From the NCBI GenBank assembly GCA_026025075.1, contig JAPEUI010000109.1:1-52739 (forward strand): a stretch of 52,739 nt of DNA, written 5' to 3'. The translations under genes were made by a program, and so were the position numbers. Every line of letters begins with the position of its first letter. The first letter of the stretch is position 1. A model generated the notes under the pieces. It was not told the origin of the DNA, ran no database searches, and saw only the letters and a list, made by a program, of their open reading frames with translations. Of this stretch, positions 1-52,739 are shown piece after piece. Source of the DNA: Vezdaea acicularis. Taxonomy: Eukaryota.

Positions 1-2538
1 GCATCATCGGCTCTCGTTGCCCCCCTCATCGTGCGGCTGGTGCAAGGCACAGCCGCCGCGGTTTCTAATCTCGGTCCTATGGCGGGGGGGGGGGTGTCGA
101 GCACCGACTTCATCCACTCCACTCCCACCCGCAATCTCAAGCACCGCGCAGGCCGCGTTCATGCGACCGGTGGGCAGCGAAACACATCGATGGGTCACGG
201 GGGTGCGTTTGCCGTGGCCGATGAGCAACCCCGCGAGGCACTCTCCTGACGAACGCATCCACCTCTGCCCCCCGTCCTACGCGCCCATGCCCGGTGCCTC
301 TCATCTCGCCTGGAGAGGTCCCGGTGCAGAGGAGCGTGGGCCGCCATGCATGAACTTCACGTCGCACCGTCACGGCCTTCCGCGTCTCCCTCGGCGGTGC
401 AGAGATATCAGCCGCAGCGGAGGAGGGAGGGAACGGAGAATTGTAAATAGAAAGATCGGATGGGATAGGGCGCGTACGTAGCGACGCAGGATTTCGGCGG
501 GACCCCCATCTCTCTCTCGCACTCGGCTCTCCCTCTCGCTCTCTCGCTCTCGCGCCACCATCCACGCCTCCATGCCCCGGTTCATGTCTCCTCTTTTTCC
601 TCCGTCGCTCTCCCGTCGTCTGTCCGGGAGCTCCATGCGCCAGGATGTTGGCACGACCAGCGCTCGTCGGTGGGACGTGGGGTAAGTTTAAGGCGGGCAC
701 CCGCGAGTCTGCAGCGCACCGGCGAGTCAGACATGGTCGTTTCTCCCCCAGCTCCACTCCCGCGGCCTGTTCGTTTCCCTGTCGTGTTGTCGAAGCGGAA
801 AAGCCCTAAGGGGGAGGGCAGGGTTCGGTCACGGCGGGGCGGACTGCCTAAGGCGCCTGCTGAGGCAGGGAACGCACCCTCTCGGCCTCTAGGAGCTTAG
901 CGTGCCCCTCCGCGCACCGTAGCCGGGCACATCTTTCAAACCTCCACCCTCCGCGCGCATGCCCCTCCGCTGCAGCGATCGTCCGACAGGCAGCAGCGCG
1001 AGGGCGAATGGGAAGAGACCGAAAGAGAAGACGAACCAGACAGAAAAAAGGAGAAGCGCCCGTTGGCCGCGCATGGTGGGTCGTGCGTGGTGCTGCGGTT
1101 CTGCTCCCCACCCCTCTCTCCCTCTTGGTGCAGCCACCTTATGTCTGCGCGACGCTGACTCGATCTGCCTTCGAGGTGCCAGCCGGACGGAGCAGACTGA
1201 CGCAGGACGCGGCCGCGCCGGCGCCGTCATGTCATTCGTCGACGGAGCCAAGAGGGTTCTGCGGGACTGCGCACGCAACCGCTTGAGTCAGCCCCCTGAC
1301 GCAGGCTCGAGTTGCCTCAGGACGTGGCTGCCGTCCGACCGTGGGGCCCTCACCCGCGCTCGACCCTTTTGGATATTCTTGGGACTTGGGACGCCTCCGG
1401 TCTCACTCTCTCCACGCCAGGGAACTCTCTTGCGTCTTTTCCTCCATGATCGACCGGCTCGTCCTGCCCACCCCCAAAGGTGAGTGTCAATCCGCCGCTT
1501 GCTCGCGCATGGACCAATCAAGCCCGCCGACGTGGGTCTGCCCCTTCATCCTCCAGGTCTGGCCTGGACCGACGGTACGAGCATCGTCGGCGCTTGGACC
1601 TTTCCAGATGGCCGGATAGTTTATCGTTCTCGATTGGGAACAGGAAGCATCCTTTCGGCCTCCTGCCACGCCCTCGTCCCCCTCTTCGTCGTCGACGGTC
1701 CGGGGTCGCGAGGGAGGGGGGGGAGGGGGAAGGGAGGGGGGTGAGTGGTGGGTGGTGGAGGCCGAGAGCGATGGCGTTGCGCCCGTTAAATCGTCCGGCG
1801 GCCAGACTCCACATTTGCTTTCGTGCAGCCATGGGACCTGCTTGGTCGATCGGCCTCCTCGCCCTTAGCCGCGCTTTGCTTCCCCCCCCGGTACCAGGGC
1901 GAGAGCGTGAGGCTCTGAGGCTCTTGGGTCTTCCCGCACAGACGCTCTCCGTGGAACCCGCTCCCCGACCGCCCAAGCCCGCCCGCTCCGTCTGGCCACC
2001 ACACCCTTTTTTCCGCCGCGGACATCCAGCGCGACACATAAAGGCCATGGACCGCAACCCTCTCGACGGGCTCGAGAGGGGAGGCGTAGATGCGTCGCTC
2101 CGCCCGTGCTCGACCTCAATTCAATTCCTCCCTCATCGTCTCTGGCTTCGATCCTTGACCTCACGGCCTCCTCTGGACGCAGCGGGTGTGCGGCCCCGAT
2201 TTGCCTGGTGGGAAGCCTGAAACGCCGTGGCAGACGTTTTGACCTGCTCAGCCCCCCCTGCGCGAGTCCAGCATCACCACACCCACCACCCGGCCAAATT
2301 CACGTGCTGCATGCTACCGCGTTGAACGAACGAGACGTTCCTCCATAAAGGGAGACGGGTGGCACGGTTGCATTGGGATCGTTCATCCTCAATTCACCCC
2401 CATTGTTTACACCATCGCCCTTCTGACCGCGCGGTCGTCCTCGTCGATCGACCCTTTCCGACCTACTGACCTCAGTCGGACACTCGCCCACTCTCTCTGG
2501 CTCTGCATTACGCGACCCGCCTCCCGCGGTGGATCTCA

Positions 2539-2544
2539 TATAAA
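2539..2544 (+). promoter_or_regulatory. Candidate TATA box of the C2H2 transcription factor gene
   Basis: TATAAA in otherwise very GC-rich DNA, ~115 bp upstream of the ATG at 2658. Confidence 0.45.
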
Positions 2545-2657
2545 GCCGGCCCTCCCTTGTCCTCTAGCCCCGTCTGCGACGGTCGGACCCTCCCTCCCCC
2601 CCCCCTGGTCTGCTCCATCGACACGCTTGCCGACCTGGACCGCCACCAGGAGCTGCC

Positions 2658-4410
2658 ATGATGAACACCGAACACATCTCGTCCTACGCGGACTTGCACC
2701 CCATTGAGTTTGACCCTCACGGTCCCTTGAGCGGGGAGCATCACTATGACTCCTCGTTGTATGACTTCGACGGCCATCGTTCTCCCTGGAACAGCCTGAA
2801 TCCACGATCGAAGCGGCTTTCCTTGCCATACGATTTCCCACAGGAGATGATCCCGGGTCTGGCTTTCTTCCAGGAGGCCTTTCCCTCGACGAGCACGATG
2901 GCCGTCAACCTACCCTGGCATGATATAAGGCCGAGCTACGAACCGCAGGCACCGTATCCATACGTACACCATCAGCAACGCGGCCCCTCTCCGTCTCAGT
3001 TGTGGGCGGAGAAGCTGTCGGACACGGACTGCTCTTCCACCACGGCCGGACTCTCCCCGAAGGCCCCTCTGTCGGACGGCTACAATGGTGCTCACATGGA
3101 TCCGCCCATGAGCTTTGGGGACCAGAGTCGCGAAGTCCTCTACACGGACTTCAACTCGCGGGGCGGATCCTCCTTTGTGAACCCACAGCATGTCCAGCAG
3201 CAACCCGACGCGACGGACGATGTGTACGCAAGGTCACTTGCTGATGCTCACTCTCCCCTGTCGTTGGAAAACTACCATCACTTGGAAGTGGACTTTGCTG
3301 GGGCCCACTCGAGGCCACTGACTCTGCTGACGGATGGTCCCTCTTATTGCCAGCACGAGGATACATCGCTCCGCCACTATTCCCAGGGCCATGATTCGGG
3401 CATCGGCAGCAGCGCGATCGACGATGCGGAGGAGACCAAGTCGGACGTCTCGGCCGATGAAGAACAGGACATGCCGGATGCAGACGCCGCGGCAGACAGC
3501 GAATACTCCCCCAAGACCCCTCCCACCACTCGAACGCGGCAACGGCGAGCGAGCACGCGGACCGGCCGGGGTGGCAACAGCAGCAGCACGATCAGTCCGC
3601 CATCGAGGAGCCGCCGGCGTGCGAGCTCGGGGGCTGGAGCCGGCGTCACGAAGTCCAGAGGCACGAGGCGAAGTAGCAAGAACGAACCCACGCGCTGTAA
3701 CGAACACCCGACGAAAGTCTTTAAAAACCAATCCGAGTTGACGTTCGTCCTCCCCCCTTGAATATGATTATTCGGTTCAGAAACTGACCAAATTGGCCCA
3801 CAGTAAACACATGCAGACGGTACACAACCGCCCCTTCCCCTGTCTGCTCTCCCCGCTCTGCACATCCACCTTTGGCTCGAAGAACGAGTGGAAACGGCAC
3901 ATCTCGACGCAGCACCTCGTCCTGTTTAAGTACCGCTGCCGCGAGCCCAATTGCATCACGCCGGCCAACGCCGCCGGCGGCACCGAAGGCCGCTTCAACG
4001 ACTTCAACCGCAAAGACCTCTACACGCAGCACCTCCGCCGCATGCACACGCCCGCCCATATCAAGAACAGCGCCGCCGGCAGCAACCAGAAGAAGGTGTT
4101 TGAAGACACCCAGTTTCCCGCCATGCAGGCCCGCGCCAAGATGGCCGTGCGCGAGGCCCCACAGTCCGTCGCCTGTCTCGGCTGCCAGAAGCGTTTCCAC
4201 GGCAAGCAGGCCTGGGAGGACCGCATGGAGTGCCTCGGGCGCCACCTGGAGATGGAGTCGAAGAGCGGCGAGTCCGCGCTTCGCGAGCGTGGCGCCGACG
4301 AGGAACTCGTCGCCTGGATGGCGACGGAGGGACTCATCAGCGGGGAAGAGCGGCTGCGGCTCGAGAAGACCGCGGAGGCGGATCGCGATGCCGAGGGAGA
4401 CGTCGAGTAG
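2658..4410 (+). CDS. C2H2-type zinc finger transcription factor (2 exons; intron 3743-3803)
   Basis: Removing GTTCGT...CTGAC...CAG joins ORFs 2658..3761 and 3793..4410 in frame (SELT-KHMQTVH). Fingers: CNEH..KHMQTVH; RPFPCLLSPLC..FGSKNEWKRHISTQH; CREPNC..FNRKDLYTQHLRRMH; CLGC..MECLGRH. Acidic/Ser-rich N-terminus and an Arg-rich basic stretch. Confidence 0.88.
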
Positions 4411-5757
4411 CTGAATCATCCCTTGGAGACGCCGGTTTTCTTTTCGTTGGTGCTGCTGTTTCACGGACCTCGACCCTGTTTTTCCGTTTTTCCTTTCTCT
4501 TCTCCTTCACATACTGCGCCTAGGAGCGCATCACGGACGAACCTACACCCCTCCTTACTCTTATTTCACCGGGCAGGCATAGCGCAAGAGGAAAACTTAT
4601 CGATGGCTTATTTGGGTCTTGGGGGCATACGTCTAATTTGGATCGGGAGCCGGGCTGGGCTGGACTGGACTGGACTGGGATGGAACGGATGGGACGGTAT
4701 GGGATCTATTCGTCTCTTCTCCTTTTTTTGATTTTCTTGTGCTGGACTTAAAAAAACTGTCGACGTGGTCTTGGGATTTAGTTGGATTTGGTATCGCTGT
4801 ATGCCTTTTTTCGTTGGTCCTCGTTGTGGTTGTTGTGGTACTCAACTCTGCCTAGATTTGGAGGCGTGGGAACTGGGTTGTGCGGGTCTCGTCACCGTTT
4901 TTTGTTGTTTTATGTTTTGGAGAGAGAGAAGGGGGGTATGTGGGAAGTTGACGGGGCGGGGCCCTTCTCCTAATTGGTAAAAGAGAGAGCGAGGGAGAGA
5001 GAGGGAGAGGATGAATTATTGAGTATTGAATAATGGTTATACCACCAACCTACCTTGGAAGTCTTAGATGGGAGTGTCGTGATACTTCCTCCCCACCCCC
5101 CCTTACGACTTAATCTGCAATGAACACCCCATCCCAATCCCCCACCCCCCGCGAGATCACTAAACCCCCGCCCTCTCTTCCCACGCAAGCGTCACCCTAT
5201 GTTTCTCCCCCCCTCGAAGCTGGAGAGGTATCCCATCCATCCGTACGCCACGCCCGCCCATCTTTATGTTGCCCCTCTACCTCTCCCCCTCTCTCTTCTA
5301 TTTGGGGGCGATATCGGAATATTCGTGCTCGAGGGTCTAGGGTCTCGGTACCCAGCTCTCGGCTCTCAGGGTCTTGACATTTGATTCCAGCGCGGTGGGG
5401 AGGTTTTTGGTCGGGATTACAGTAGTCGGGTCTTAGCCCTAGTATCGACCGACCTTCCTTGGCGTACTCACTCACTCACTCACTCGCTTACTCTCTTGAT
5501 ACAAGCGCAATCGCGATCGTAATCCCAATCCTACTAGCTCCGGGAAATTGTTTTTAGGGCGTTCAGATTCTTCTTACTTCACCCCGCGCCGGAAGCTTTG
5601 GAGCAAGCGGGTGAGGGGGTTGTTTACTCCACGCCGTTCCTCCACGACTTTGCAGCACGCAAGAAACCCTGAGTACCGTCCCGGGTACGCCCGGAGAGAG
5701 ACTCACTTGCACTACGCGGGTGGCTCAGGGGTATCTTGTATATACTACTACTGGGCT

Positions 5758-6205: not shown

Positions 6206-6279
6206 ATCTGCCTCAGAGCTAAGTGGTGGTGGTGGTGGTGTCCTCGCTTGATGATCGAGTGCGTTAACTAGTCTTGAAT

Positions 6280-6427
6280 CGGCCTAGATGCTTTCAGTAA
6301 CTGCCAAATACCCCTGCTTACTGAATGCATCTAAGCCGCTTCGAGCCTAGATGCATGAAGCTTGAGCCAGATACCCCTCCCCTGTATGGTGAATGCATCT
6401 AGGTCCCGTTCCGAGCTTAGATGCATC
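6280..6427. repeat. Degenerate array of palindromic arms related to the 155-bp repeat at 51.7-52.3 kb
   Basis: Arms 6280-6300 and 6318-6338 are complementary at 19/21 positions around a 17-nt loop. Further CCTAGATGCAT/ATGCATCTAGG-type arms at ~6346, ~6393 and ~6416. Confidence 0.8.
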
Positions 6428-6944
6428 CATCGACGGCTAAACAGCGTTTTACTATAAAGATACGTGATTATTGCCCCCCCCCCCGAGCATCAACATTAAA
6501 CTTTTCCTCGACTTCAAGCATCGTTGCGAGACGAGCGTTCTGAACTTCTTTCTATTGTAGCTACAAACTAACACGACGTTTTCTTCACCGCTGCAAAGGA
6601 TCGAGAAGTATCGATAGTCCATCTCAATGGTCTTTTTTTCTCCTCTCTGCTGCTGCTGCTGCTCCTTTACTCTAGCTGTGCGCTCTGTCTGCTATTGGCG
6701 TAGCTACTCGAGGCTATCCAGCCGCATTTACCCTTTTCATTGATGAGCTTTCGCGCTTGCTTGCTTGCTGATAGCAAGTATGCCTCACGGCCATGCACCA
6801 CTCCTCCTCCTCTCCGCACTTACCTTACCCTCTCCAGTCGTTTGCCTCTCCCCAACCGTCTGCCTCCCATCCGGCGCGCACAAATCCTCATTGTCGTCCC
6901 CACCCCACTCACCCTCTCTCCTTCGCAGTATCGGCGGGAGGAGC

Positions 6945-9407
6945 CTAGCCCCCATCCCCACGCGCCGCAGGACCGAACGGGTTCCGAGACATCATGGGCC
7001 GAGGAGGCAGCTGCCTTGGCGGCGACCGAATATAGCCCCCCGGGATCCTAGGACTTACTGGCGGAGAACGGAAGACGGTGTCGAGGACCGTTGGGCCAGC
7101 GAGTGGCGAGTGGGTGAACCCGCCGGGCATCCTCAGGGTTGCGGGCGGAGAACCAGGCGCTGGACGGCTGCGGAAGGGGAGCGCGGTTTCTACTGAGGGG
7201 CGGCGGGTGTGCACTGCTTTACGGGGACTGTCGTTGGCTGTTCACCGTTAGCAGGAATCAATAACGAGTACAAGAATGGGGAACGCACTGGAGGTAGGGC
7301 CATGATAATCATCGTCCATCGATCTCTCGGACGAATACGTAGACGCCCTCACGCGTACCCTGGGGCGAGCCCCCCCCTCAGCCGAAGAGTAGAGAGGACC
7401 AGACAGATCCGGACCGAACATGACGCGCGGACCACCGACCTGCGCTTGCGTGCTCTCCCAGCTGTCCTGCCGATCCGGCTGCAGATACTCGTCTCTCAGC
7501 ACCGATAGCCGCCCTCGCGATCGATGAATACGTTCGGGTTCATACATATGAACGTGCTGGACATGGCCCGAGAACACATTTGAGGGGCGCTCGTAGTAGT
7601 TCTCGCTACTACTGGGGCCGGCGGTTGAATATAGGGTTCCGGAGCCGCTGGAAGTAGACTGGGACCGGCTCGGAAAGGGGGTGGCGGGGTGGTAGCCTCG
7701 GTCTTGGACAAATTCGTGGAATGGTCGACTCGGCGGCATCTCGCGGGGAGCCGGCCTCCCAGATTCCATGTGAGCCTCGGCGGCAGCAAAGGCTTCAGAC
7801 TGCTTGTACAGAGTGTCTTGGCCTGGGAATTGGGAGAAACTCCCGGAGCTCGAACGCCTATGTCGGTTGGTATTATAACGTTGTCGCTCGGGACTGTAGC
7901 CACGTCGCTCGGGACTGTAGCCACGTCGCTCGGGACTGTAACCACGTCGCTCGGGACCATATCCACCACGGTCAGGACTGTATCCATGTCGCTCGGGACT
8001 ACAATCTCGTCTGCCTGGACTATAACCGCGTCGTTCGGGACTATAACCGCGTTGGAATGGGTTATAATCATGTCTTTCGGGAACAGAACCACGCCGGACG
8101 GGACTATAACCGCGCGGATGCATATCGTAGCCATGTCTATAGGGGGCAGGATGGCTGGCAATCCTTTCCCCGGCTGCTAGGCGCGCCGGGGGAGCGCGTG
8201 GAGACTCATCGATCAAATCGAGCTCCCCAGATTCAATCTCCACAGATTGATTGTGAGAGCGGCCGTGGGTCAAGCGTCTGACGGTGTCAGTGCTCATATC
8301 TCTATCTCTTGGATACTGTATAGCAGGCCCTACACGCCTCAAGACCCGACGAGTCGATGGTTGGCGTGCGACTCGAGACGTTTCGTCAAAGCTACCCGCA
8401 TGGTTCAGGGTTGATCCTGCCTCCGGGCCAGGGTCGGTGCTGATGCGAATCTGTAGTCGCGTGTTTTTGCCTCCTTTCTTTTCATCTTCCTTCTTTCTTC
8501 CAGCTTTTTCCTTCTGCGTCTCCTTCTTCTTCTCAGCCCGGGATGTGCGGCGCGACTTGGGCTCGCTCTCATCAGTAGATGTCTCTTCCTTCAGACATCG
8601 TCGACACACGCCCTCCTTCGGGACTTCGCCGGGGAGTAGAGGATGACGCCTGTTGTAGCGAGCCGAGCGAAATCGACCACAAGAGGCACAGCTATGTTTC
8701 ATGAGCGGCCCAGAACTTGTGATGCGTGCCACCGTAGTGTCCATTTTTGGCTCGTTTGTTGCGGGAGCGGCGGCAGGAGCAGCGGCAGGAGCAGCGGTGG
8801 GTGCAGCGGCAGGTGAAGGCTTTGCGGCAGTGGCGGAAGCCGGTGGTGGTGGTATGTGATGAAAGTCAGCGCCGCCATGGTTCGGCCATGGGCCAGGCCA
8901 TTGAGCGTACGTAGGTGGGTAATGAGCAGGTGTATGTGACGGATAATGTTTAGTCGGCTGATGATGCACCCAAATATTTTGCTCTGTGTTCCAGTAATAA
9001 TAGTTGTTCGGATCCCACTGCAGAGGCGGTTGTGTGAATTGACCCCCAGCGTTTGGCGGTGGAGCAGCTGGAATCTGCACTGCAGCTGGTCTATGATATG
9101 CTACAGGTGGTGTCGGGAGGTTCTGGTGCAGACTCGCCGCCCGAGGTCGAACTCTGTTCTGGCCGAGCGCTTCAGTAAGGAGAGTCATACCATTACCGAC
9201 TCGAACTGGCTTTTGTGGCTTAGGAGCAGGGGCCAGAGTAACCGGTACGTATACGTAGGTCGGGCCAGGTTGCTGAGGCGGTACTCTAGTTTTGTTGTTA
9301 GCCATTTAGTTCTGCTTCACAACTCACGTAGTGCTCTGTCTCGGATTTTTCAGGGGAACCGACCCTGCGACGCCTTTGGGATCACTTCCGTTTTGATTTG
9401 AAGCCAT
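6945..9407 (-). CDS. Uncharacterised Pro/Arg/Ser-rich protein with a CxxC-x24-CxxC module and RGYSPER heptad repeats (3 exons; introns 9327-9286 and 7288-7238)
   Basis: 685-aa ORF extended by in-frame introns GTGAGT..GCTAAC..TAG (42 nt) to the ATG at 9407 (MASNQNGSDPK...) and GTGCGT..GCTAAC..CAG (51 nt) into ORF 6945..7214. Confidence 0.75.
7884..8114 (-). repeat. Coding 21-bp tandem repeat, 11 units (consensus RGYSPER)
   Basis: Repeating tcgctcgggactgtagccacg on the + strand; 11 x 21 = 231 bp. Confidence 0.95.
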
Positions 9408-13416: not shown

Positions 13417-14780
13417 CGTAAATCGATATGATTGCGATAGCTTCTAGTTAAGGCAAAGATTGATGTGGCCCGGTGATGTTGCCGATATCGTCAATGACGT
13501 ATGTTGGGAATGATGGATCTTGTTCGCTTCACGAATATCCTTAATCTCAGATGTGTATTCGGCAAGCTCAAATAAGCCCTGAGAGAAGGTCCAGCTAGTA
13601 TAACGAAAGAAAGAAAGCACGGTCGTCTAGATCTGTCAGATAACTCGGCGTATGTAAGGTACTAGAAGGCGTTACAGCCAAGAATTGAGTGGCAGCTACG
13701 AACTGTTGTGCCGCGCCGCACAGTGGCGAGATCGAATCAACTTAACCGGCATGTGTCAGTCGGCAGAACCCGCTGAGCTATCTGCGTCCACCCACCCTTA
13801 GCCCGTAAACATGGCGGGGTGCCTGTATGTAATTGTTTTGAAGCAATTAGTAACATTGAACACCGAGTGGGATCTAGCTTAGGGGAGATGGAGAAAAAAC
13901 CATGTGCCCTTCTAACAAAGAAAATCCGACACAGCCATGACGTGGCGTTTATTACATTGTAACACAATAAAGTGGTCATCAAAGCATGATATCTTGCTCT
14001 AGGGGAGCGCTCACGACGTGCAGACGCACTCAAACCAAGCTCAGATCAGGGCGGCATCGGAGCGATCCCTTGTCAATATTCAGATCAACCCTGCTCTACA
14101 ATGCCAAATCTGCTCTATGATATCAAACCTTGACTAACGCAAGGCGTTGGATTAGGTGAAGATCCCGCATGTCGGCATCCTAGACATGAATAGAACTTCA
14201 GAAACCCTAGTTAGTTCTCGGTTCTCGTCAGCCAACATCAAAAATCACTACAGGGAGAGGTTCAGCAAATGATCTGGTTAGTACGCTACTGTTCTATTTA
14301 AAGGTCGAAGGTTGATCGCAAGCCTAGATTTCTGAGATGACCATCGAAATCGCTGCTGCTTCAGGTCTCAATCAAAGACCAGCAAAGATTCATAATGAGG
14401 CTTCTCTAAAATGGCAGACCATCATTACTAGAATTCGAGTTAAGAGGAATGCTCGATTTGAATTGTGGATTGCCTGAACCTTACTGACGGCAAGCCTGGT
14501 CGACGCGTCCAATGGGGAGGAATCGTTTAGATCTTTTGGATGTTGCGGCCAGGGGGGAAGGTACCAATGAGAATCCAGCGCCCATACGTCCGCGGCTGCG
14601 CCTATGGGGCTGCAGCATATGGCTATACCATTGGATAACCCAACGCATTGAAGTCGGGCTCGATCGCTGAAGGTTCTTCAGAACACCTTAACCGTCTAGC
14701 ATGGCAGCCGTAACTCTACAGGACAATAACACGCTAATCGTTGATCAAGCCGGCAAAGCAGATGTATCGCGCCTCCGGGA

Positions 14781-17700
14781 ATGGCAGACGCATCGTCTTC
14801 ACCAGCATTCACGCTTGAAGAGGCCTATGCGGATGCTGTTGCGCAACTCGAACGCCTTCAACAGGCAGGCCACTTATCATTAGTTGACTATAACATCGTG
14901 GTAGATACGAGACGACCAGAAGAGCTACTAGCTATTATCAACGATGCTGCCACTCGCAGTGCCAAATCCCACCCGGATGCCAAAAAAAGAGTTCAACGCG
15001 TTGTGGAGCCCCTTCTCATGAGACTGGAAAGATTTGGAAGTGCTATTGATCTTTTAGCGCAATGTTCCCCTCAGATTACGGGCGTCAATATTGTAGGACT
15101 AATATGGGGATCAGTCAAGTTTCTCCTCGTCATCGCGCGAGATATAATCGATACATTCCAGAGCGTGTTGAATACCTTGGACTCGATTTTTAAAGCACTA
15201 CCTGTATTGGATATATACCATAAGCTGTTTGGATCTTCAAATATTCAGCTCATCCGGGCACCTCTTGTCAAGATGTATGCAGAGTTTGTCGCATTTGCGG
15301 TTCAAGCGGTCAAATCTTTTAATCGATCTGAAATGCGAACACTTGTCCGATCAGCGTGGAGCTCTCTGCAAAAAGAACTTAAATTGTGTATAATCAGAAT
15401 AGAAAAAGCGGGAGAGGATCTGGATAAAGCCGCGCAAATAGAACATCTAAACCAAGCAGAACAGATGCATAGCAACTTGAAGTTAGAAATCGAAAAGCAA
15501 GAGAGGTTCCGGCGTGAGGTCAGGCTTTACTTTGGTCAGACTATCGATAGTCGCATTTCCACTGATTTTGCCTTACCTCCTCTTAACGACGCTCCCATCG
15601 ACCTTTTGTCGGTACATTTCTATGGCCGCAATCAAGAAATTGAGCTTCTAGGTCGGCTTTTCCAGAAAAAGTACGGAGATAGTCCCACGCGTTGTGCGAT
15701 TCACGGAATGCCAGGCCTTGGCAAAACTCAGTTAGCACTGAAGTATGTGAAGGTTTCTTACGACCTTAAACGCTATTCACATGTATTTTGGATATCTGCT
15801 GCTACAATCGAGAGGCTCAATCAAGGCTTTTCTAAGATGCTTGATCTCCTAAATCACACGGATCGTTATCACCCAGAGCAGAACACAAAATTGACAGCAG
15901 CGCGCCGTTGGCTAGAAACGTCTCAATCAGGCAGCTCTAGGACCTGGCTACTCATCTTTGATAACGTAAATATAGACACACTCGAATTTATTCGAGAGCA
16001 CCTTCCCCGCCAAAACTCGCAAGGAAATATTTTATTCACAACAAGGACCGATGGAATCGCCAAAGCTGTAGTCCACGCAGCTGGAGAACAACATCAAGTT
16101 CTAGAGCTTCAAACTCCAAGCGTAGATGATGCGGCAAAACTACTCCTGGACCATTCTGAGATCGATGAGAGTAAGGTACCCTCCGCTTTGACTAAAGCAA
16201 GAAGATTGGTTGAAAGCGTTGGTTGCTTGCCGCTTGCTATCGGTCAAGCGGCGTCATTCATGAAACAATCACATAAGACTTTGGACGATCTATTGGTCCT
16301 GTACAGGGACGAGCACAAATTCCAGGTTCTAAGTTGGGAGAATGATCTGACCTCCTATGAGCAAAAATCTGTTACGGCCACCTTTGTTTCTCAATTTGAT
16401 ACTCTAGATCGCCTTCATCCTGAAACAAGCAGTCTCTTAAAAATACTCTCATTCTTGGACCCTGAAGGCATACCAGTTGACATGATTGTCGAAGGAGCCA
16501 AGACTTTGTTGCAGCAACCTTCTTCAACGATGCTGCTAGACAATTCTGCACAAGCGAGTAGATCAGTAACTCGCCTGGCGCACATTTTCAAAAGAAAACA
16601 ACGAAAACGACAGACCCCGATTAGCTTGTCCGAAAACGGCTCCTCGCAGAAATCTGATATTAGTTGTGATCCAATCATATGGTCGAGACTGGAAGCATTG
16701 GCTCAAACACCTATACAGCTGCAGAAAGCTATTCAGCAGCTTCAGAACCACTCATTAGTTGAGCATCTTCTTGATGTGAACACGCCTATACTTCGTTTGC
16801 ATGATTTGATACAATTCATGGTTCAGCAAAGAGTAAAGGTAGAGAGAACCGAAAATGAAAATTTCATCTTGGCGACAACGGTTGTCTGTAATGCCTTTCA
16901 AAAGGTTAGAAACCCCGAATCCAGCAAATCCTGGGTTCAGTGCGAGATGTATATTCCACATATTCAGTCTTTGCTTGCAAGAGATAGTGTCCATGGTCAA
17001 AACGCCTTAAGGCTTTTTTGGGCTGGCGCCGATATTGCAAGATACATGGGAGTAAGAGGACGCTTCGAAGAAGCCGCTAATATTCTAAAACGCACGCTAG
17101 AGGGCTGTGAGCGACAGCTGGGCCCAGACCGGGAAGATACGCTAAGAATGAGACACGCTCTTGGGAACCTCCTTATGAATCAAGGCCAATACGCTGAAGC
17201 TGAAGAGCTGTTCCGGCGAGTGCTAAAAAGAAGGGAGGAGATAGATTCAGACAGTCCTGATACTCTAAGGGCAATGGGTGGTCTTGCAAGTGCTCATGTG
17301 GCGCAAGGTCAATGTTTAGAGGCGGAACAGCTATACCTAAAGGTACTCGAAAACCTCGAGAAACAGATTGGTAAGGAACACCCAGATACTCTAAGGACAT
17401 TGGACGGTCTCGCATGGGTTTATAGCTATCAGGGCCAATATTCAAAAGCCAAAGATCTATATATACGGGGGCTTCAGGGGTGGCAAAAACTAATGGGTAC
17501 AAACAACCCCGAAGCATTAAGAGCGATGCGAAATCTTGCCAACGTATATTGCCAACAAATGGCTTACTCCCAGGCAGAGTCCTTGTATAAACGTGCGCTT
17601 GAAGAGTCGGAGAAAGAACTAGGGTGGGACCATCTCAGTACTTTGGAAGCTGCAGGAGGCCTTGCGATTGCCTACTCAAGTCAAAGTCGCTACCAGGAAG

Positions 17701-18089
17701 CGGAGCAGCTTTACAAGCGAGCACTCCTGGGCTTTCAGAAGTATCTAAAACCAGAGCACCCTCAAATAACAACAATTTTGCATAACCTTGCACTCGTCTA
17801 CAGCAATCTTGATAGGCACTCGGAAGCCGAAGAGCTATACAGGCAGGCATTGGAAGGAGAGGAAAAGCATTTGGGTCCGAACCACCCAGAGACTCTTGGA
17901 ACAGTAAACAATCTTGCGATGTTCTACGTGAATCAAGGCCGCTATACAGCAGCGGAGCAACTTTATTCTCGAGCGCTTGAGGGCCGAAAGAAATGCCTAG
18001 GCCATGACCATCCTGAAACGCTGAAGACGTTGGACAATATTGCAACCCTCCGTCAGCTGATGAACGCTCCTTCAATGACGCCTGGTTAG
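14781..18089 (+). CDS. Fungal NLR-like STAND protein: helical N-terminal (Goodbye-like) domain, NB-ARC, TPR repeats; intronless
   Basis: Walker A GMPGLGKT, Walker B WLLIFDNV, ILFTTR, GCLPLAI, LRLHD. About 8 kinesin-light-chain-like 42-aa TPRs (LGPNHPETLGTVNNLA). N-terminal LERFGSAIDLLAQ...GLIWGSVKFLL motif. Confidence 0.92.
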   Translation: MADASSSPAFTLEEAYADAVAQLERLQQAGHLSLVDYNIVVDTRRPEELLAIINDAATRSAKSHPDAKKRVQRVVEPLLMRLERFGSAIDLLAQCSPQITGVNIVGLIWGSVKFLLVIARDIIDTFQSVLNTLDSIFKALPVLDIYHKLFGSSNIQLIRAPLVKMYAEFVAFAVQAVKSFNRSEMRTLVRSAWSSLQKELKLCIIRIEKAGEDLDKAAQIEHLNQAEQMHSNLKLEIEKQERFRREVRLYFGQTIDSRISTDFALPPLNDAPIDLLSVHFYGRNQEIELLGRLFQKKYGDSPTRCAIHGMPGLGKTQLALKYVKVSYDLKRYSHVFWISAATIERLNQGFSKMLDLLNHTDRYHPEQNTKLTAARRWLETSQSGSSRTWLLIFDNVNIDTLEFIREHLPRQNSQGNILFTTRTDGIAKAVVHAAGEQHQVLELQTPSVDDAAKLLLDHSEIDESKVPSALTKARRLVESVGCLPLAIGQAASFMKQSHKTLDDLLVLYRDEHKFQVLSWENDLTSYEQKSVTATFVSQFDTLDRLHPETSSLLKILSFLDPEGIPVDMIVEGAKTLLQQPSSTMLLDNSAQASRSVTRLAHIFKRKQRKRQTPISLSENGSSQKSDISCDPIIWSRLEALAQTPIQLQKAIQQLQNHSLVEHLLDVNTPILRLHDLIQFMVQQRVKVERTENENFILATTVVCNAFQKVRNPESSKSWVQCEMYIPHIQSLLARDSVHGQNALRLFWAGADIARYMGVRGRFEEAANILKRTLEGCERQLGPDREDTLRMRHALGNLLMNQGQYAEAEELFRRVLKRREEIDSDSPDTLRAMGGLASAHVAQGQCLEAEQLYLKVLENLEKQIGKEHPDTLRTLDGLAWVYSYQGQYSKAKDLYIRGLQGWQKLMGTNNPEALRAMRNLANVYCQQMAYSQAESLYKRALEESEKELGWDHLSTLEAAGGLAIAYSSQSRYQEAEQLYKRALLGFQKYLKPEHPQITTILHNLALVYSNLDRHSEAEELYRQALEGEEKHLGPNHPETLGTVNNLAMFYVNQGRYTAAEQLYSRALEGRKKCLGHDHPETLKTLDNIATLRQLMNAPSMTPG

Positions 18090-26473: not shown

Positions 26474-26627
26474 CACGCGGGTGACAAAAAAACCGGCACA
26501 CCCGTACAACCAAAATTGCAGGTGTTTGCAGATGTTTGCTCAGGAGGCGAAGTACTCTACTACACAATTTTGGTGGTCAGGTACCTCGCTAAGCCTATGG
26601 TGTGCCGGTTTTTTTGTCACCCGCGTG
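26474..26627. mobile_element. 154-bp MITE with perfect 29-bp TIRs and a 4-bp TSD (GCAG)
   Basis: 26474-26502 CACGCGGGTGACAAAAAAACCGGCACACC is the exact reverse complement of 26599-26627. GCAG lies directly outside both ends. Internal inverted 10-mers at 26509-26518 and 26565-26574. Confidence 0.88.
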
Positions 26628-27507
26628 GCAGCAGGCCGAACGCCAACATCGCAATATCGCAACGTTTGCTCGCCAGCTAATATGGGTTGAAGCACCCTTA
26701 ATTACCTGTAGGCCACGATCGAAATCCAGACAGTCGAACCCGCTTCGATACTATCGTGTGCGTCGCACAAGAGGGCGTTTCGACTTCAAAAGATATATCC
26801 TGTGGAACGAGGAGCAGGTTGTTTGTCCAAGTGGAGATCTCTCCCGTTCCCTGCGTTCTGATTATACGACTTGCAACGCTAATGCTGCACCCCTCGCCCC
26901 AAGCTAGGATGCGACAACTGGATTCGCCGCATTGGCTTCCGTTGTAGGGTCCCAGCCATCAGTACATGTAGCCCTCGTGAAGGACGCTAGTACTTGGGGG
27001 GACCTATTTTAGCGTGCCCCCTGCAGGTGTTACACGGTTGATACGAGTGACGGGCGCTGAAATGGCCTAGATGACTCAAGTCTTGGTAAGTGTCCTTGTT
27101 CGCGATTGAGAGGCACGCATGGAGCTGCAAGAAGAAACATCTTACTTTCTGACACACCCTAGTGATCTATATATGCGACTACACTAATGCGCGTGGACTT
27201 TCGCTTCAGCAAAAAGCGAGTCTTTACCGAATTGTGGTTTGTCAAAAGCCCCGCGTGGCAGATGCAATGATGATCGATTCGTTCTGCAAAAGTCGAGGGG
27301 AGCAATAGCGTAACTTCCGGAGGATTCTTTTTTGATGAGTCTTGCAAAGAGCTTAGAAGGGTCAGGGTCACGTGTGTCCGATAGAGCCGCCGCCGCCGCC
27401 TCCGCCTGATTGGGATGCAGGAGATGGGGCGGCTGTCTCCTCTTGCCAGAAGACCGTGAGTGAGGCTGGACGCAGAACTGTCTCTCCGTCTTCCATGCCT
27501 CATCACC

Positions 27508-30500: not shown

Positions 30501-31163
30501 GTCGAGGTAATCATCTCGTTGCATTTTCTAATGATAGCCTGTCCTTCATCACCTCGACGCGGTATGAGCCCGAGAAGGTCATCACATACTGGAGCGAATG
30601 CACTGTTCCATCCAGTACTAACCGCGTTGAAAGCAGTGCTCCCTTCGTAGGCTCCTTCTGTTCTTCCTTGAAGAGCTATTCTAATTTGTCTGACTTAGGG
30701 TCTTGTTGGCGATGATGGCCTATCTGCACTCGTCTACCCCGATAGCACCCTACAAGCTGCATTCTTGACAAGTTTTACAGAGAAGGGCTATCCAGTCTTG
30801 CTCTCCCTGAAAGATCCAAGCCCTGTCAGCCGGCTGTTACGCGATCATAAAGGCCAAATAGGAGCAAGGATACATCGGGCCACTCTTTGCGCTACCGGTA
30901 CCGACTTGGTCCTAATAAATCAGCGTAATGATATATTTTGGATCATGGATCCTTTTGGTCATGAGCAAGTAGCGCGTCAAGTTACAAGCATTAAGCGGTC
31001 TACCTCTGTCAAGCGAGAGCTCGAGATGGGTATGCCGAATAGTGACGAAGTACACATATTTTGGATCGATAGGGGACGGGGTAAGCTCGTGACAGTGGGG
31101 AAGTCCGGGGGCAAAAGCAAACCGCGAGAATTGACCGTGGATATGGAGCAACTCGTCGCTTGA
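27508..31163 (+). CDS. Uncharacterised multi-exon protein with a probable C-terminal WD40-like beta-propeller
   Basis: ORF pieces join through GT-AG introns at about 28108-28159, 28574-28647, 28999-29102, 30249-30301 and 30647-30698. Beta-rich blades such as MSISRNDQYLALKYSRYVQIFDI and VAFSNDSLSFIT. Confidence 0.7.
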
Positions 31164-46277: not shown

Positions 46278-46618
46278 TTTCTGGGATAAGAAAATTAGTG
46301 TAAAAGTATGTAGAGTAACAGTAAAAATCTTGCATAGGACTCTCTCATTTGCTGCGTAGTAATGGGTCAGACCACCATAGTCAAGCTGAGATGCCCCAAA
46401 GAGCCGGTATTGACGCATTCTAGTGCTGCATCTCGTTATTGATGATGTGACACGATTAGGATTATGGGAATTTCTTCCAGCAGCCAGACGGCCTAGAAGA
46501 TGGTTGCATACCGGGATGACGTGGTTGTAGTGGAGGGACGGCATAGATGCTAATTGGTTATTTGTGCATAAGCGAGCATTAGTATGCGCTTCTAATGCAA
46601 CGCAGCCTATTAAACGAT

Positions 46619-46686
46619 GAATAAACTGTCAAGCGCGCTTTCGTTTCGCTTGGCGTCAAGGACTAACGGCGCTTGACGGTTTATTC
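46619..46686. repeat. 18-bp inverted repeat (hairpin) upstream of the orphan ORF
   Basis: GAATAAACTGTCAAGCGC (46619-46636) and GCGCTTGACGGTTTATTC (46669-46686) are complementary at 17/18 positions. Confidence 0.7.
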
Positions 46687-47034
46687 CTCATCTCATTGGT
46701 TACACTTCAATTTTTAGTGTGCTCTATCTATGGTAGCGACTATACAACTTCTGATAACCTGTCGTGTCATTGAATCATTGGATAAAGTAAATTGCGCATG
46801 TATGAAAATTGCTTGTGTTAATCTCGCTTAAGCTAAATCAATTCGCAATTGGTTAGTTTCATTGAATCAGACCTAACAAAAATGGAATAGGCAGTTTTCA
46901 TATCACGCTGGACGGTTTATTCTACTTGTGATTGGTTATTATAGACACGCCACTATAAGCCATAAGTGGCCTTCCTACCATGTCAATAAATATCAATGCA
47001 TCCGCCATAGCATTTGATGTCTCCCATCAAAATC

Positions 47035-50000
47035 ATGGGGCGAAAAGCAAAGACTCAAGCAGAAAAGCTGCAGGCTCAACAAGCACGGCAAAATCATTAT
47101 CAACTTAGAACCTTGAATCAGCCCTATTTATCAACACCACTAAGCGTCTTACCAGAATCCACATCATCATCTATTCCAGCTGTTTTGGCTCCATCAATTT
47201 CCTCACCAGTTTTGCATGCTGCAAGTGAACAGAATGAGCCTTTTGATGGACTTGTCAATCTTTTTGCTGATGCCCAACTTGATGTTGAGTCTAATCCAGA
47301 AGCAGATCATCCTCTTTTGCCGGCAGAAGCATCTGAAGAATCTGATATTGACTTAAATATTCTACTAGATCATCATTCAACTACTTCAGATGAAGTCAAT
47401 TCGGAATCCAATGAACTTCTAAATCTATCATTTGCATCAAATCAGGAACCATCAACTATTCAAGGCCAATTAGATGTTGCTGATGAGGCCAGACTTGAGT
47501 TGAAAGCCTTCAGACAACCTTTAGAGCTTTTGGACAGCTCAGATATCTCTTCCAGTATAGCGTCTGATGTCTTGGAAAGAGACGATGATATTGCAGACAC
47601 TCAATCTTTTACATTGAGTGAAACAAATTCAGACGATGCTTTAGGATTGGATCATGAAATTGATGAACGACTACAAAAATCCTGGAGCACCACTTGTTCT
47701 TGCAATGCAGGAACAAACTTATCAGACGAATCAGGCTTGGGATTTAAGGAAATGTGTCAATATTGGAATAGGCATATGCCCAGAAGAGACAGTCCTAGTC
47801 GCTCTAGTACCTTTCCGATAAATTATGAAAATCTGTTACCAAGAGATGGAAGACACGGAGACTATCGGAACATTGCTTGGAAAGCATTGTTAGCGGGGGA
47901 AGATGGAATTCCTCCAAGTTTAAATGTTGCCTGTTCGGAAATAGAGTCTGGTATCCCTATTCAAGAATCTTCTCTCCAAATATCTCGACGTTGGGATGTA
48001 GACAGCTTGATAGCAGAGGTTACCAGTTTGGGCGTACATCGGGATGGATTTGATCTAGCCTATCGGCCTCCATACTTGCGACGTGTGACCCAAAATCCCT
48101 ATGTAATATTTCAAGGAAAACGCCTGCATCAGATAAAAAACCAAAGGTTAGGACATGGACTTGCCTCTGCCGGATTCAATTATCAGTGCCATGTTTTCTT
48201 TCCTCATATGCCTGTTCTTCATCGGGATGGAACTCATTTGACAGATGTACAACAGGAGGAATGGATTGACAACATTATCATTCCGTCCTTGCGCGAAAGT
48301 TGTCCAGATGATATTCTGCAACATCATCCTCGAAGTTTTGCAGAAGTTAAAATCAAAGCAACCGCCAAACAAGAGTGGCATCCTACCGGTGTGCAACAGC
48401 CAATAGATCTTCGATCTTGCATTCCTGAGGAGTATTTGGATTGTTTTTGGAATCTTGTCTTGCAGAAATGCAACAGCCCTAGATTTGCCATTTTCCGGGA
48501 GGTGTTTTTGATTGTGCAAGGGCACAATCTAAAGCTCTTTACCAAGAAGCTTGATCCTCAACAGGTTCGACAAGATTATTTCCGTCATCTTCGGCGATGT
48601 TTTCATGCCAATGAACGGTACATGCCTGCACAAAAATGTTGGATAGATTTAGGACTGGAAGACACTCCAGAACCATTTCAGAATGAAGCAGTAACTCTTT
48701 TGCGAAAATCCAAATGTTGTGCCAGCTGGAATATTCAATTTCAAGCTGTGGATCAAAGATCATCACTTCTTCGCACTCAAGAGTTTCCTTGGGCATTAAC
48801 TCGAGATATCATGTCAACTCGTGCTGAAATATTGCCAACAAACAAATGGCATGCCAAAGGCGGAATTGCTTTTAACAAAGCTTATAGCCTTCATAAAGAT
48901 CTCTTTACTACTCCAGTAAAAGGATTGGTTCCATTTGATCATCAGCAGCTGGAAGGATTAGCATATGATCAAGACCTGCTCAACCGTTGGTATGGGTTGA
49001 GCTATCGGGGCAGGCAAACCTCCCATCTAGACAAACGCCAGCATCTGCTAAAGATATATCAACATGCTAAACAACGGGTAAATCAAGCGATATGTTCTAC
49101 CATTGATACCTGCTTTGGTGTACGGCAAGAATATCGAATGACTCTTGAACGTTTTTCCCGCCTACAGTTAGATGCTGCTTTAAATGACGCAGCAAGCAAC
49201 GATCCATATCGACATCGGCCCTATTATGTATTTCGAACCAAAGATGTCAATACATATATTGGATATGACATCAATCGATGGTTGATGTGTCTAGAAGCAT
49301 TGATCTGTCAAGTTAATCCAGGGCCCATTGGACTTTCTCCTGCATCTGCAGAGCAACAGATGATCAATGGTGTGATGGTTAGCGCTATCATCAGAACATT
49401 GCATTCCAACTTGGGAAATGTACAAAAATTGCTGCAAAGATCTATATGGTTGCATGATTGGAAAGTCAAATCACTTTTGGAAGAAAATGAAAGTGAATTA
49501 GATGAGAATGAAGAATTGAATGAAGTTTCAACACGTCTAGGGCTGGATTATTGCAAAAGTTTAGAACAGACTGGTTTAGCTTAGTTGCCCTCAGATTTAA
49601 TCCTATGGGAAGGTCTTCCAATGTTCAAGCCAGATATCATTCCTCGACTAGGACTAGCAATCAATGGATTTGGTAGACAAAGAAACCAAACCTTGAGGAT
49701 TCAGAATCTTCTTCAGCAAGAACATCGAGAGTTGGCGCTTTTTCGGGAATGGTTGCAGCGGTCACTGACTTTTCCTAAGGAGAGCTTGGATCCTCATGCG
49801 CGCAAATGGGTATTTCAACTAGGAGCTGAATTGATCATTCAATCCTATCAACTGGAGATCCTTGATATTCTGCGTCAACGTTCCAAGGAATTGGATCCAA
49901 GAATAGACATAGTCCAAGAACGCTTTGATGCAATACAGTCTAAAGGCCTAGAGGGATTTAGCTATGATCTTTTAACAAGACTTCTGGAGATGCCGCCGCA

Positions 50001-50655
50001 TCTGATCCTAGTTAAAAAAGCCGCCCGTCGTGGTGTGAGCCTTTTGGATCAATACAATACTGGTACCTGGATTGGCCGCATTGCTGGACTGTTTGGTTTA
50101 GATGATAACATGCCTGGCGCAGTCAAAAAACGTGGATGGGAACACAGCCCATTTCGAGAATGGAAACGCCGGCTTCGACATATTGTCAAAGATGTGCTAG
50201 GACCAAAGACATCAAAAAGCTTTGAAAAAGTGATCAATCTTCACGCTTGCCAAAAGATGTGGATCATACCGCAGTACAATATTGACAAACTCTCTGTCAT
50301 ACGAACAGCTTCAAAGCACAATGCGCCCAAGACTTTTGAAATGCTGCAAGAGATGGAAACATTGTCTCGGACCAACTGGGTTATCCCGCAGCTGAATCCA
50401 CTGTATTTTGGAATGTTTGAAGCTTTGGAGCAATCAGTCCAGCAGGAGAGCCGTCTTAGTACTGGATCAAATCCACATTGGCAAGAAATTCATGAACAAC
50501 TGACGAGAGCAGATCAGCTTCTTCTTTTGACTGAAGGTGACATTTATTCTGAAGACTCCGGATTAATCAAAAATCCAATACGATATGGCATAGACACCAA
50601 GCTAAATCTAGCTTTAGAATTCAAAAATCAACTGGAAAGAAACAGAGAAAACTGA
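47035..50655 (+). pseudogene. ~1200-codon intronless orphan ORF interrupted by a single in-frame TAG (49582-49584); probably mobile-element encoded
   Basis: ORFs 47014..49584 and 49585..50655 abut in the same frame (TGLA*LPSD). More AT-rich than neighbouring genes and flanked by repeats. Confidence 0.75.
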
Positions 50656-50749
50656 TCAATGTTTTGCGTGGTCATCATCGTGGAATGGATTTCAATTAGT
50701 CAATTTTGATAGATTCAATGTTCTGGCAGCAGTTTCCAGACATTGAGTG

Positions 50750-51610
50750 AAGAATTGCCAATTTTGAATCTCCAAGTCCTCTGGGATCAGTTTTGCGTCA
50801 TCGATCACGGATTTGTCGATTCTCAATCTGTTGATCCTCTAATATCAATCGAGATACATCAACTCTTGACATCAACTTTTTTGATCTGCCAGTTTTCACC
50901 CTCTGGATCATCCGGCATTGGTTTTGACTTGTCGATTTTTACCCTCTTGACTTTTTGAAATAGATTCCGAGTCATCCATGATGAACCTGCCAATTTTGGC
51001 CCTTCTGGTCTTGTGGCATCAGTTTTGTGTCATCGATCACGGATTTATCGATTCTCAATCTGAAGATCCTCTGGAATTGATCTTGAGACATCAACTCTTG
51101 AGATCAACTCTTGATCTGCCAGTTTTCACCCTCTTGATCATCCGGCATTGGTTTTGACTTGTCAATTTTTACCCTCTTGGCCTTTTGAAATTGATTCCGA
51201 GTCGTCTTTCAGAAATCTGCCAATTCCAGCCCTCCTGGTCTTCTGGCATTGGTTTCGCGTCATCGATCACAGATTTGACGATTCTCAATCTGATGATCCT
51301 TTGGAATCGATCTTGAGACATCAACTCTTGACATCAACTCTTGATCTGCCAGTTTTGACACTCTTGATCTTCCGGCATTAGTTTTGACTTGTCGATTTTT
51401 ACCCTCTTGGCCTTTTGAAATTGATTCCAAGTCGTCTTTCAGAAATCTGCCAATTTTGGCCCTCCTGGTCTTCTGGCATCAGTTTTGCGTCATTGATCAC
51501 GGATTTGACGATTTTCAATCTGATGATCTTTTGGAATTGATTTCGAGACATCAATCTTTGATCTGCGAACTATTTTTACCCTTTAGGCTTTCTGAAATTG
51601 ATTCTGGGTT
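50750..51610. repeat. ~230-bp tandem repeat, about 3.5 diverged copies
   Basis: Anchor atcagttttgcgtcatcgatcac recurs with substitutions at 50786, 51018, 51248 and 51478 (periods 232, 230, 230). Confidence 0.92.
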
Positions 51611-51689: not shown

Positions 51690-52335
51690 GAAAAGCACTT
51701 AGGCCCAATTAGGCTGTCACAAATAACATTTTCCGCCTCAAAGCCCAAATGTCTTTATTAAACAATTCTATTGGTCGTTTAGAAACGGGTCTAAACTCAA
51801 GACGGCCTAAGTGCTTTTAATAAGCAGGGGTATTTCGTCGTTGTTGAAAGCACTTAGGCCCGATTAGGCTGTCACATGCGACATTGCCAGCCGGACGGCC
51901 GGGATGTGTTTATCGAACAATTCTATTGGCCATCAGGAAGCGGGTCTAAGCTCAAGACGGCCTAAGTGCTTTCAATAAGCAGGGGTATTTCGTCGTTGTT
52001 GAAAGCACTTAGGCCCGATTAGGCTGTCACATGCGACATTGCCAGCCGGACGGCCGGGATGTGTTTATCGAACAATTCTATTGGCCATCAGGAAGCGGGT
52101 CTAAGCTCAAGACGGCCTAAGTGCTTTCAATAAGCAGGGGTATTTCGTCGTTGTTGAAAGCACTTAGGCCCGATTAGGCTGTCACATGCGACATTGCCAG
52201 CCGGACGGCCGGGATGTGTTTATCGAACAATTTTATTGGCCGTCAGGAAGCGGGTCTAAGCTCAAGATGGCCTAAGTGCTTTCAATAAGCAGAGGTATTT
52301 TGTCGTTGTTGAAAGCACTTAGGCCCAATTAGGCT
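51690..52335. repeat. 155-bp tandem repeat (4 full copies plus a partial) carrying 17-bp inverted arms
   Basis: GCACTTAGGCC at 51695, 51850, 52005, 52160 and 52315. Arms TTGAAAGCACTTAGGCC and GGCCTAAGTGCTTTCAA. Confidence 0.97.
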
Positions 52336-52612
52336 ACCATCTATGAGTCATCGTATATTGAAATCAAAGTGATAAGGTATTGAATATATGACGGTGATAA
52401 TATTGATATGAATCCATCAGGTTGTCTTTCAAAATTCAAGCCAAATTCTTGGTTCAAATTTTCTATAAGTAGACGTAAAGTTTTCCATGTTAAAGTCTTT
52501 AAAATTGATCGCTATTAACTCTTAAAGACTTCCATATAGCCATTCTCTTATCGCTCATCATTTCCAAAGTCTATACTATTCCTTTAAGAAATAGTTCCTC
52601 TTTACGCTTATC

Positions 52613-52739
52613 ATGGAGTCTTATTTTGAAAATGTTGTATCGTCTGCATCCCATCTCAACGATCACATTATACCAGACACCACACAACTGACGGTCGAAG
52701 AACTCAAAGCCGTTCAAGAGTCAATTCAAGATTGTAGCT
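52613..52739 (+). CDS. Possible 5' end of a gene running off the window
   Basis: atcATGG context; frame open to the window end: MESYFENVVSSASHLNDHIIPDTTQLTVEELKAVQESIQDCS. Confidence 0.3.
   Translation, partial: MESYFENVVSSASHLNDHIIPDTTQLTVEELKAVQESIQDCS

Follow-up and report, generated by a model that had tools for sequence, protein, structure and literature searches.

Why should a hairpin of 59 bp stand twice on one fungal contig, 45 kb apart and in opposite orientations? The question is raised by contig JAPEUI010000109.1 of Vezdaea acicularis (assembly GCA_026025075.1), whose 52,739 nucleotides were analysed whole and are called the window below; it is contig C12 of an 18.9-Mb fungal assembly and carries ordinary genes at 9-46 kb. 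The hairpin is a real feature and very probably the end signal of a 5.9-kb mobile element (46438-52335) with a single orphan gene. We prefer, at a probability of roughly 0.6, the reading that this element is a rolling-circle transposon encoding a nickase of the Rep_trans fold, that the hairpin is its site of cutting and stopping, and that the copy at 6.3 kb is the relic of a sister subfamily. The parts that we regard as established are the mobility of the element, its exact left end, the linkage of gene and hairpin array, the likeness in fold and motifs to Rep_trans proteins, and a spacing shared by hairpins, left end and targets. Papers are cited by PubMed Central (PMC) number.

The hairpin and its two settings

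A preliminary description of this DNA had reported a repeated, inverted 59-bp hairpin with concerted changes in its arms, a conserved loop and local arrays at both sites. The repeat itself is confirmed: the reverse complement of 6306-6338 agrees with 51958-51990 at 28 of 33 positions, the whole 59-mers at 6280-6338 and 51958 agree at 46 of 59, and both sites combine 21-nt arms with a 17-nt loop, the arms being imperfect (19 of 21 positions pair). Chance likeness is excluded by shuffling, as TAAGCAGGGGTATTT with at most two mismatches occurs five times in the window against 0.09 expected, a count reached in none of 100 shuffles, and as the wider alignment of 6274-6460 given below was reached in none of 300. 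Ten arm positions differ between the two 59-mers; six of them make three compensatory pairs (p about 0.015 in a simple random-placement test) and four are one-sided. In an alignment of ten hairpins 96.5% of the cells are paired, and both partners are changed in 4 of 20 pairs, far above slid controls, which bears out the expected covariation. The loop core AG(G/A)GGTAT is kept in all ten, and it is to this core, not to the loop as a whole, that the claim of conservation applies.

Further copies, whose absence would have spoken against the preliminary description, do exist: 16 exact loop matches lie in the genome, all within contigs C4, C12 and C163. A degenerate loop pattern finds 19 copies in arrays and relic, three of which vary within the loop, and 18 places with one mismatch, against 29 for a control pattern, while the arm pattern of the 6.3-kb variant finds the two relic hairpins and three other places, against two for its control. 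A covariance model of the ten hairpins, run over 55 sources, recovers the arrays and relic hairpin 1 (relic hairpin 2 has no separate listing); its other notable matches, loop-less hairpins in locus L093, were counted as generic. A structured RNA was rejected, since two loci that take in both sites gave no Rfam match at E 1. In viruses the loop matches 100 stretches, and the arms are present in none of the 80 listed.

The two settings differ. At the right-hand site the hairpin is part of 155-bp tandem units that close the mobile element, whose layout is a 5' hairpin, one gene, a 230-bp array and then the 155-bp hairpin array. At 6.3 kb the supposed array amounts to two hairpins and an upstream part of about 55 bp. 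The homology there extends beyond the hairpin, since the 155-bp unit can be aligned over 6274-6460 with its linker and upstream segment included, and the earlier proposal of a relic of a related element fits for this reason. The relic's only other matches in the genome are the hairpin arrays, and every one of its half-sites shows the same changes in the arms, which is how binding sites for a sister enzyme would be expected to look. The assembly yielded no gene of such a sister subfamily, and a search for a matching left end beside the relic gave nothing above shuffles. A low-complexity frame of 685 codons with 21-bp repeats and no Pfam match (7248-9305, minus strand) adjoins the relic.

Left ends, chromosome ends and a predicted nick

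Copies in contigs C12, C163, C4, C120 and C245 align at 92-97% from window position 46438 onward, and C135 and C88 hold the element's first 127 bases at contig ends. The first base is the same in all seven left junctions of the genome, which comprise four unrelated flanks and three flanks of one repeat; public moss-associated runs add two further flanks at 46438, together with an allele that tracks the left flank to 46438 and then diverges. Hairpin arrays follow the gene in three of the four near-complete copies (C12, C4 and C163), the fourth, in C120, being cut short within the 230-bp array by a repeat resembling a long terminal repeat (LTR), and within this genome the proposed association of array and gene thus stands. 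No terminal inverted repeat or target duplication was seen for the element. Contigs of four runs, which do not cover 51830-52739, contain no joint of the 46438 flank to post-array sequence, nor do these contigs show the right end joined to the left. The first full hairpin of the array in C4 and C163 carries an internal inversion relative to the other units, the sequence on either side being unchanged (2 of the 16 units listed; L017 765-821 and L018 1062-1118), probably through one event. The 5' region at 46486-46530 bears a weak likeness to the hairpin's left arm and loop, at a score reached by 10 of 300 shuffles. The left and right flanks of C120 were considered as halves of one repeat, and this was rejected.

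Three of the seven left flanks (C120, C135 and C88) are copies of one repeat, 75-79% alike, and any two of them share 34-39 of 57 junction bases, where the remaining 18 pairs of flanks share 15-21. Because these flanks are far more diverged than the element itself, they point to separate insertions at one position, within 1 base. The flank repeat has 13 matches, eight of which run into (TTAGGG)n, three into another repeat and two into the element; C120 ends in telomere 4.6 kb past the truncated element. Seven empty chromosome ends could be compared (C305 was left out, its match stopping before the junction): TAGG begins 19 bases after the junction position in six and 18 in one, and the word AA(G/A)C(A/G) stands at +10, before TAGG. 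The element's first A was considered as target sequence; one public allele covers that base, but the empty chromosome ends mostly read T there, and it was therefore assigned to the element.

The same distance recurs within the element. All five window hairpins examined have TAGG 19 bases after GGTATTT, with the AA(G/A)C(A/G) word at +12, and the element's first base likewise lies 19 bases before TAGG; the two words occur together at 10 of 73,920 background positions. From this shared spacing a nick is predicted after GGGGTATTT, at the end of the conserved loop. We regard the 19-base rule as one strong hint that falls short of proof. Contigs C26, C302 and C299 (L246-L248) carry a different repeat at the same subtelomeric position, the start of which is also a loose end at window 46991 in run X2, and this repeat may be a second element with the same target rule.

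The orphan gene and its putative enzyme

The gene is broken by one to three stops in all four near-complete copies. Compared with the window copy, the ratio of nonsynonymous to synonymous change (pN/pS) is 0.35-0.48 over the whole gene and 0.15-0.28 in the core, and all four copies keep the nine residues that are candidates for catalysis. Pfam returned no family for either half of the gene and, for 26 relatives, one sub-threshold match with none to Rep_trans; the PDB searched by sequence gave no match, the ESM Atlas no usable match, and IMG/VR, GTDB and PLSDB no relatives. Representatives at 50% identity include 631 relatives, and those with names are ascomycetes of several classes, among them a protein 99% identical to the gene product that its source assigns to Vezdaea acicularis; a single bacterial-bin label, on a 4-kb contig, is taken to be mis-binned. 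A second gene family in this genome was rejected, as a distant-relative query returns the same four copies. A 59-residue piece in C157 (128335-128511), 49% like the gene and with no hairpin nearby, is perhaps an old relic.

A Rep_trans-like pattern was recorded from the motifs before any folding or fold search was made. AlphaFold models of the core, built from 93 sequences, reached predicted local distance difference test (pLDDT) scores of 94.6 and 95.8, and in a wide structural search with the trimmed model RepSTK1 ranked first (Z 6.2, 171 residues aligned, root-mean-square deviation (rmsd) 4.7) and RepDE second (Z 5.7, 164 aligned, rmsd 5.3). These are the two solved Rep_trans initiators and the only 2 of 48,161 chains with Z at least 5, the next unrelated chain having Z 4.8 and a TBP chain standing at rank 45; with the untrimmed model they appear as long whole-domain matches amid helical noise (ranks 2 and 10). 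The conserved residues run in the order D14/D16, D231xxxE235, K308xY310 and R390xE392 (core numbering), beside D46, D142xxxD146, R189xY191 and R212xE214 in RepDE (PMC4797284; the comparison also draws on PMC6499999). D14/D16 are invariant in 91 of 91 rows with a residue there, as are R390 and E392, while D231 is kept in 92 of 93 and Y310 in 93 of 93. As judged by sequence order and secondary structure only, the acidic residues D14/D16, D231 and E392, which stand for the Rep_trans metal ligands of motifs N', I and IV, lie on separate strands (9-22, 228-238 and 389-396), and Y310 ends strand 304-311, followed by helix 312-317; RepDE is described with the same arrangement (PMC4797284). Rep_trans motifs are described as RxD (I), T/SxY/ExG (II) and YxKxxE (III) (PMC5714925); the orphan protein has WxDxGxE and KxYNxxK, the RxE of motif IV, and no motif II among its conserved columns, and an HUH motif is absent from the invariant columns of the core. 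On these models the protein is probably a Rep_trans-fold nickase; it would work like Rep_trans, yet is no member by the sequence tests of that family. The earlier suggestion of a nick site or origin fits this picture, because the gene models as a Rep_trans-type nickase and the TAGG spacing puts the predicted nick where the conserved loop ends.

More distant relatives of the gene, at about 30-50% identity, were found in 29 metagenome loci, some of which have hairpins of their own: in L073 before the gene and akin to the 5' hairpin of the window, in L070 250 bases after it. A palindrome flanks both the gene and an adjacent RecQ-like helicase gene in L074-L076, and is missing from L081, which is 88% alike in the gene. 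A short palindrome with core GGCATGTTRACATGC (L074 1037, 6075, 6538 and 11421; L086 81) encloses the related gene and, as a second cassette-like unit, an OrsD/DEAD helicase gene; in L086 the flanks are shuffled. In L073 (9968-13921) the relative is fused in frame to the C-terminal piece of a helicase, and in L072 (670-4149) an SNF2 helicase gene lies upstream on the same strand; these helicases are possible partners.

Features of the window that bear on the hairpin and the element
Feature	Position	Strand	Remarks
Relic of a sister array that has diverged	6274..6460	-	Holds the unit's upstream segment, then hairpins 2 and 1, at a reduced spacing of ~65 bp
Relic hairpin 1	6280..6338	-	21-nt arms, 17-nt loop; predicted minus-strand nick between 6306 and 6305
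Relic hairpin 2	6346..6403	-	Outer arms of TAGATGCA type as in hairpin 1; loop retains AGGGGTAT
Left end of the element	46438..46460	+	Begins ATTGATG, with TAGG 19 bases on from the first of these
Second, unrelated hairpin in the 5' region	46616..46689	+	A similar one precedes the gene in relative L073
Orphan gene	47017..50655	+	1,212 codons; single premature stop at 49582
Uninterrupted core, modelled as Rep_trans-like nickase	47956..49161	+	Conserved D 47995, 48001; D 48646; E 48658; K 48877; Y 48883; K 48895; R 49123; E 49129
230-bp tandem array	50756..51558	+	3.5 copies, no strong hairpin
155-bp tandem array	51692..52335	+	4.2 copies; four full hairpins, 59-mers from 51803, 51958, 52113 and 52268; nicks predicted after 51835, 51990, 52145 and 52300
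Unique A+T-rich sequence after the array	52336..52739	+	Single genome match; no joint to 46438 in the contigs of four runs

Other features were noted in passing. Locus L027 (C120) has a solo-LTR-like repeat of about 365 bp at 4277-4640, with about 30 other genome matches clustered on C283, C244, C249 and C79, and, on the minus strand at 1168-4329, two orphan frames (502 and 550 amino acids) without a Pfam match, which separate the truncated element from the telomere; towards its end the 502-residue frame has a motif that may resemble those of DNA base-modifying enzymes. In the window, 26474-26627 holds a perfect 29-bp inverted repeat, its halves 96 bases apart, of the kind seen in miniature inverted-repeat transposable elements, 14745-18089 an NB-ARC and TPR gene of the fungal NOD-like receptor (NLR) type, and 27460-31163 sub-cut-off matches to DUF7100 and DUF7099 with orphan frames between them.

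Readings of the locus and its place among known systems

If the preferred reading holds, the protein would have the Rep_trans (TBP-like) fold in place of the HUH fold of Helitrons and Replitrons, bind a site ending in TAGG and nick one strand 19 bases 5' of it, by means of the invariant tyrosine and a D-D-E metal site. Nicking would begin at the left end of the element. A host or neighbouring helicase would help to displace the strand, which would be freed within a hairpin loop after GGGGTATTT and then joined to a target site with matching geometry. The junction of the subterminal repeat with (TTAGGG)n would offer just such a target, which would explain the insertions at chromosome ends. With hairpins in tandem the process could stop at any of several points, and read-through would leave intact hairpins, and foreign DNA as well, at the right end. 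The 6.3-kb copy would be the stranded right end of a sister subfamily, in which the arms, as likely binding sites, altered in step and the core of the loop was preserved. Arrangements of this type are described elsewhere: in Rep_trans origins nicking takes place in the hairpin and specificity comes from a repeat close by (PMC4797284; PMC13107129), and the origin of the archaeal virus SNJ2 is a hairpin downstream of a Rep_trans-fold gene whose relation is invisible in sequence (PMC13107129).

Several observations weigh against this reading. No right end is seen at the predicted nick: the window's last unit and the relic keep the whole hairpin plus 10-11 bases, the arrays of C4 and C163 run off their contig ends, and C120 is truncated by the LTR-like repeat. 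The 19-base rule counts only as a hint because it was noticed post hoc and the chromosome ends are related copies; empty sites are known for none of the other four insertions. A tblastn search of seven relatives against window 1-46000 found no gene relative near the relic. The covariation of the arms is mostly one split between two subfamilies and so counts as few events, not many independent ones. Template switching at palindromic origins could yield both concerted arm changes and a flipped spacer, and can thus be an alternative source of the former. Between the two sites the entire loop shows no clear excess of conservation over the arms (14 of 17 against 32 of 42). Among the 29 distant-relative loci none has the conserved loop as a hairpin loop, some have hairpins of their own and L081 lacks even these, so that the association of hairpin and gene is only suggestive across species. 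As to the protein, Z values of 6.2 and 5.7 are modest, below 8 and in the range that the tool calls common; Foldseek found nothing at E 0.001 against the PDB or BFVD, with inovirus proteins only at E >0.01; profile-profile comparison (hhalign) with 57 Rep_trans proteins was not significant (best P 0.09), motif I being in register within it; and there is no Pfam match to PF02486. Motif II is unrecognisable, W replaces R in motif I, the lysine lies at +4 and not +2, inserts of about 108 and about 65 residues separate the protein from Rep_trans, and the element encodes no helicase.

It is improbable, to our minds, that the same enzyme is at work but uses the hairpin solely as a platform for binding or as a stop signal of the Helitron kind, the strand being freed about 10-11 bases past the last arm. 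Both visible right boundaries (52335 and, in the relic, about 6268) would agree with this, as similarity is lost at that distance from the hairpin, at CT and then A, and the Helitron1 end lies 10-12 nt after its hairpin (PMC5148889). However, the 19-base spacing to TAGG and the kept loop core are then left unexplained, and an empty site is known for neither boundary. Slightly less probable is another chemistry altogether (an unknown DDE-type enzyme, a recombinase, or a passenger gene of a larger element), in which the Rep_trans likeness would reflect a common sheet fold and the hairpins would be binding sites. The modest Z values, the want of support from sequence, the SNF2 and RecQ-like helicase genes beside the relatives' gene and the cassette-like bracketing of gene and helicase by the L074 palindrome favour this, but no other fold reaches Z 5, the invariant tyrosine is correctly ordered between acidic motifs, and neither terminal inverted repeat nor target duplication was seen.

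A shade lower again we place an integrated plasmid- or virus-like replicon, the hairpins being episome origins and the copies having been captured at breaks and chromosome ends without active integration. Characterised Rep_trans-fold proteins all start plasmid, phage or integrative and conjugative element (ICE) replication (PMC5714925; PMC13107129), the spacer of one hairpin is flipped in C4 and C163 as in palindromic origins, and chromosome ends hold three of the seven junctions. Against this, the left end is base-exact across nine different flanks, the unit has no capsid or other gene, and neither relatives in IMG/VR, GTDB and PLSDB nor a right-to-left joint (contigs of four runs) came to light. 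Finally, a functionless satellite unit carried by the element, with covariation from template switching and a decayed stray at 6.3 kb, would suit the loop's ordinary overall conservation, the scarcity of independent compensatory events and the loop-internal variation in 3 of 19 copies, but is very improbable given a loop core kept in 10 of 10 hairpins, a kept linker and a spacing common to left end and targets.

The rolling-circle reading invites comparison with four known systems. Rep_trans proteins (PF02486; pT181-family RepC/RepD, RepSTK1 and MOBT relaxases) are the best structural matches and share the acidic-acidic-Tyr-RxE order with ligands on separate strands, and the kept loop with subfamily-specific arms resembles their shared nick site with its specific binding site. 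In contrast to them, the element's protein has no Pfam or profile match, spans about 380 residues from first Asp to last Glu against 190, lacks motif II, has K at +4, is 1,200 residues long and belongs to a fungal chromosomal repeat, not to a bacterial plasmid, phage or ICE. Rep-Arvir proteins of archaeal viruses and plasmids (RepSNJ2, DUF7845) likewise show their fold by structure alone, with rmsd of about 4.5, and have a K two before the Tyr and an origin hairpin downstream of the gene, but these replicons integrate by other means and no sequence match was seen (PMC13107129). Neither DUF7845 nor a MarR-like winged helix-turn-helix gave a Pfam match in the gene or 26 relatives, with a Pfam set that may lack a DUF7845 model.

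Helitrons, including fungal Helitron2/FoHeli, are also eukaryotic elements of 5-6 kb with an exact 5' end, a 3' hairpin and no duplication seen, and a rolling-circle mode is likely common to both; unlike them, the present element has no HUH Rep, helicase domain, 5' TC/TCAG, or CTRR or ATTTT end, and its hairpins form a tandem array (PMC5148889). The Helitron Rep-helicase fusion was sought and no Pfam match or HUH motif in invariant columns appeared; the left end reads ATTG, not TC, and CTRR was not seen at a right end that is not secure. An asymmetric inverted repeat as in Helitron2 is not apparent, since 101 of 300 shuffles reach the score of the 5' end against the reverse complement of the unit. 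Replitrons share a single Rep gene without helicase, an exact left end, a fuzzy right end with carried-along sequence and a right-end hairpin, but theirs is an HUH Rep, in plants, algae and protists, with short direct terminal repeats not seen here (PMC10288648). The conserved columns of the orphan protein show no HUH Rep with GYxxK.

To our knowledge, the rolling-circle transposons described so far all use HUH enzymes. Helitrons (PMC5148889) and Replitrons (PMC10288648) do so, Rep_trans is listed for plasmids, phages and ICEs (PMC5714925), and a 2026 paper treats Rep_trans as bacterial, with archaea as the one further domain in which it places the fold (PMC13107129). The searched full-text literature, which leaves subscription papers mostly outside, gave no Rep_trans protein that is eukaryotic or carried by a transposon, and an unclassified Repbase or Dfam entry may exist. 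If the rolling-circle Rep_trans reading is true, the element is a categorically new kind of transposon; we see about an even chance that it represents a new order of eukaryotic transposons widespread among ascomycetes, with a Rep_trans-fold tyrosine nickase, a cut 19 bases 5' of TAGG, and homing to chromosome ends through the likeness of the element's own site to the telomere junction. No Rep_trans-fold enzyme would then have been known before from eukaryotes or in the role of a transposase, and a eukaryotic family of this size (more than 600 clusters), borne by mobile units, would bring the fold to a third domain of life and introduce a new chemistry of transposition. It would provide a testable cut rule and possibly a tool for telomere-homing, single-strand insertion, and would account for a group of fungal repeats that lack annotation and of hypothetical proteins.
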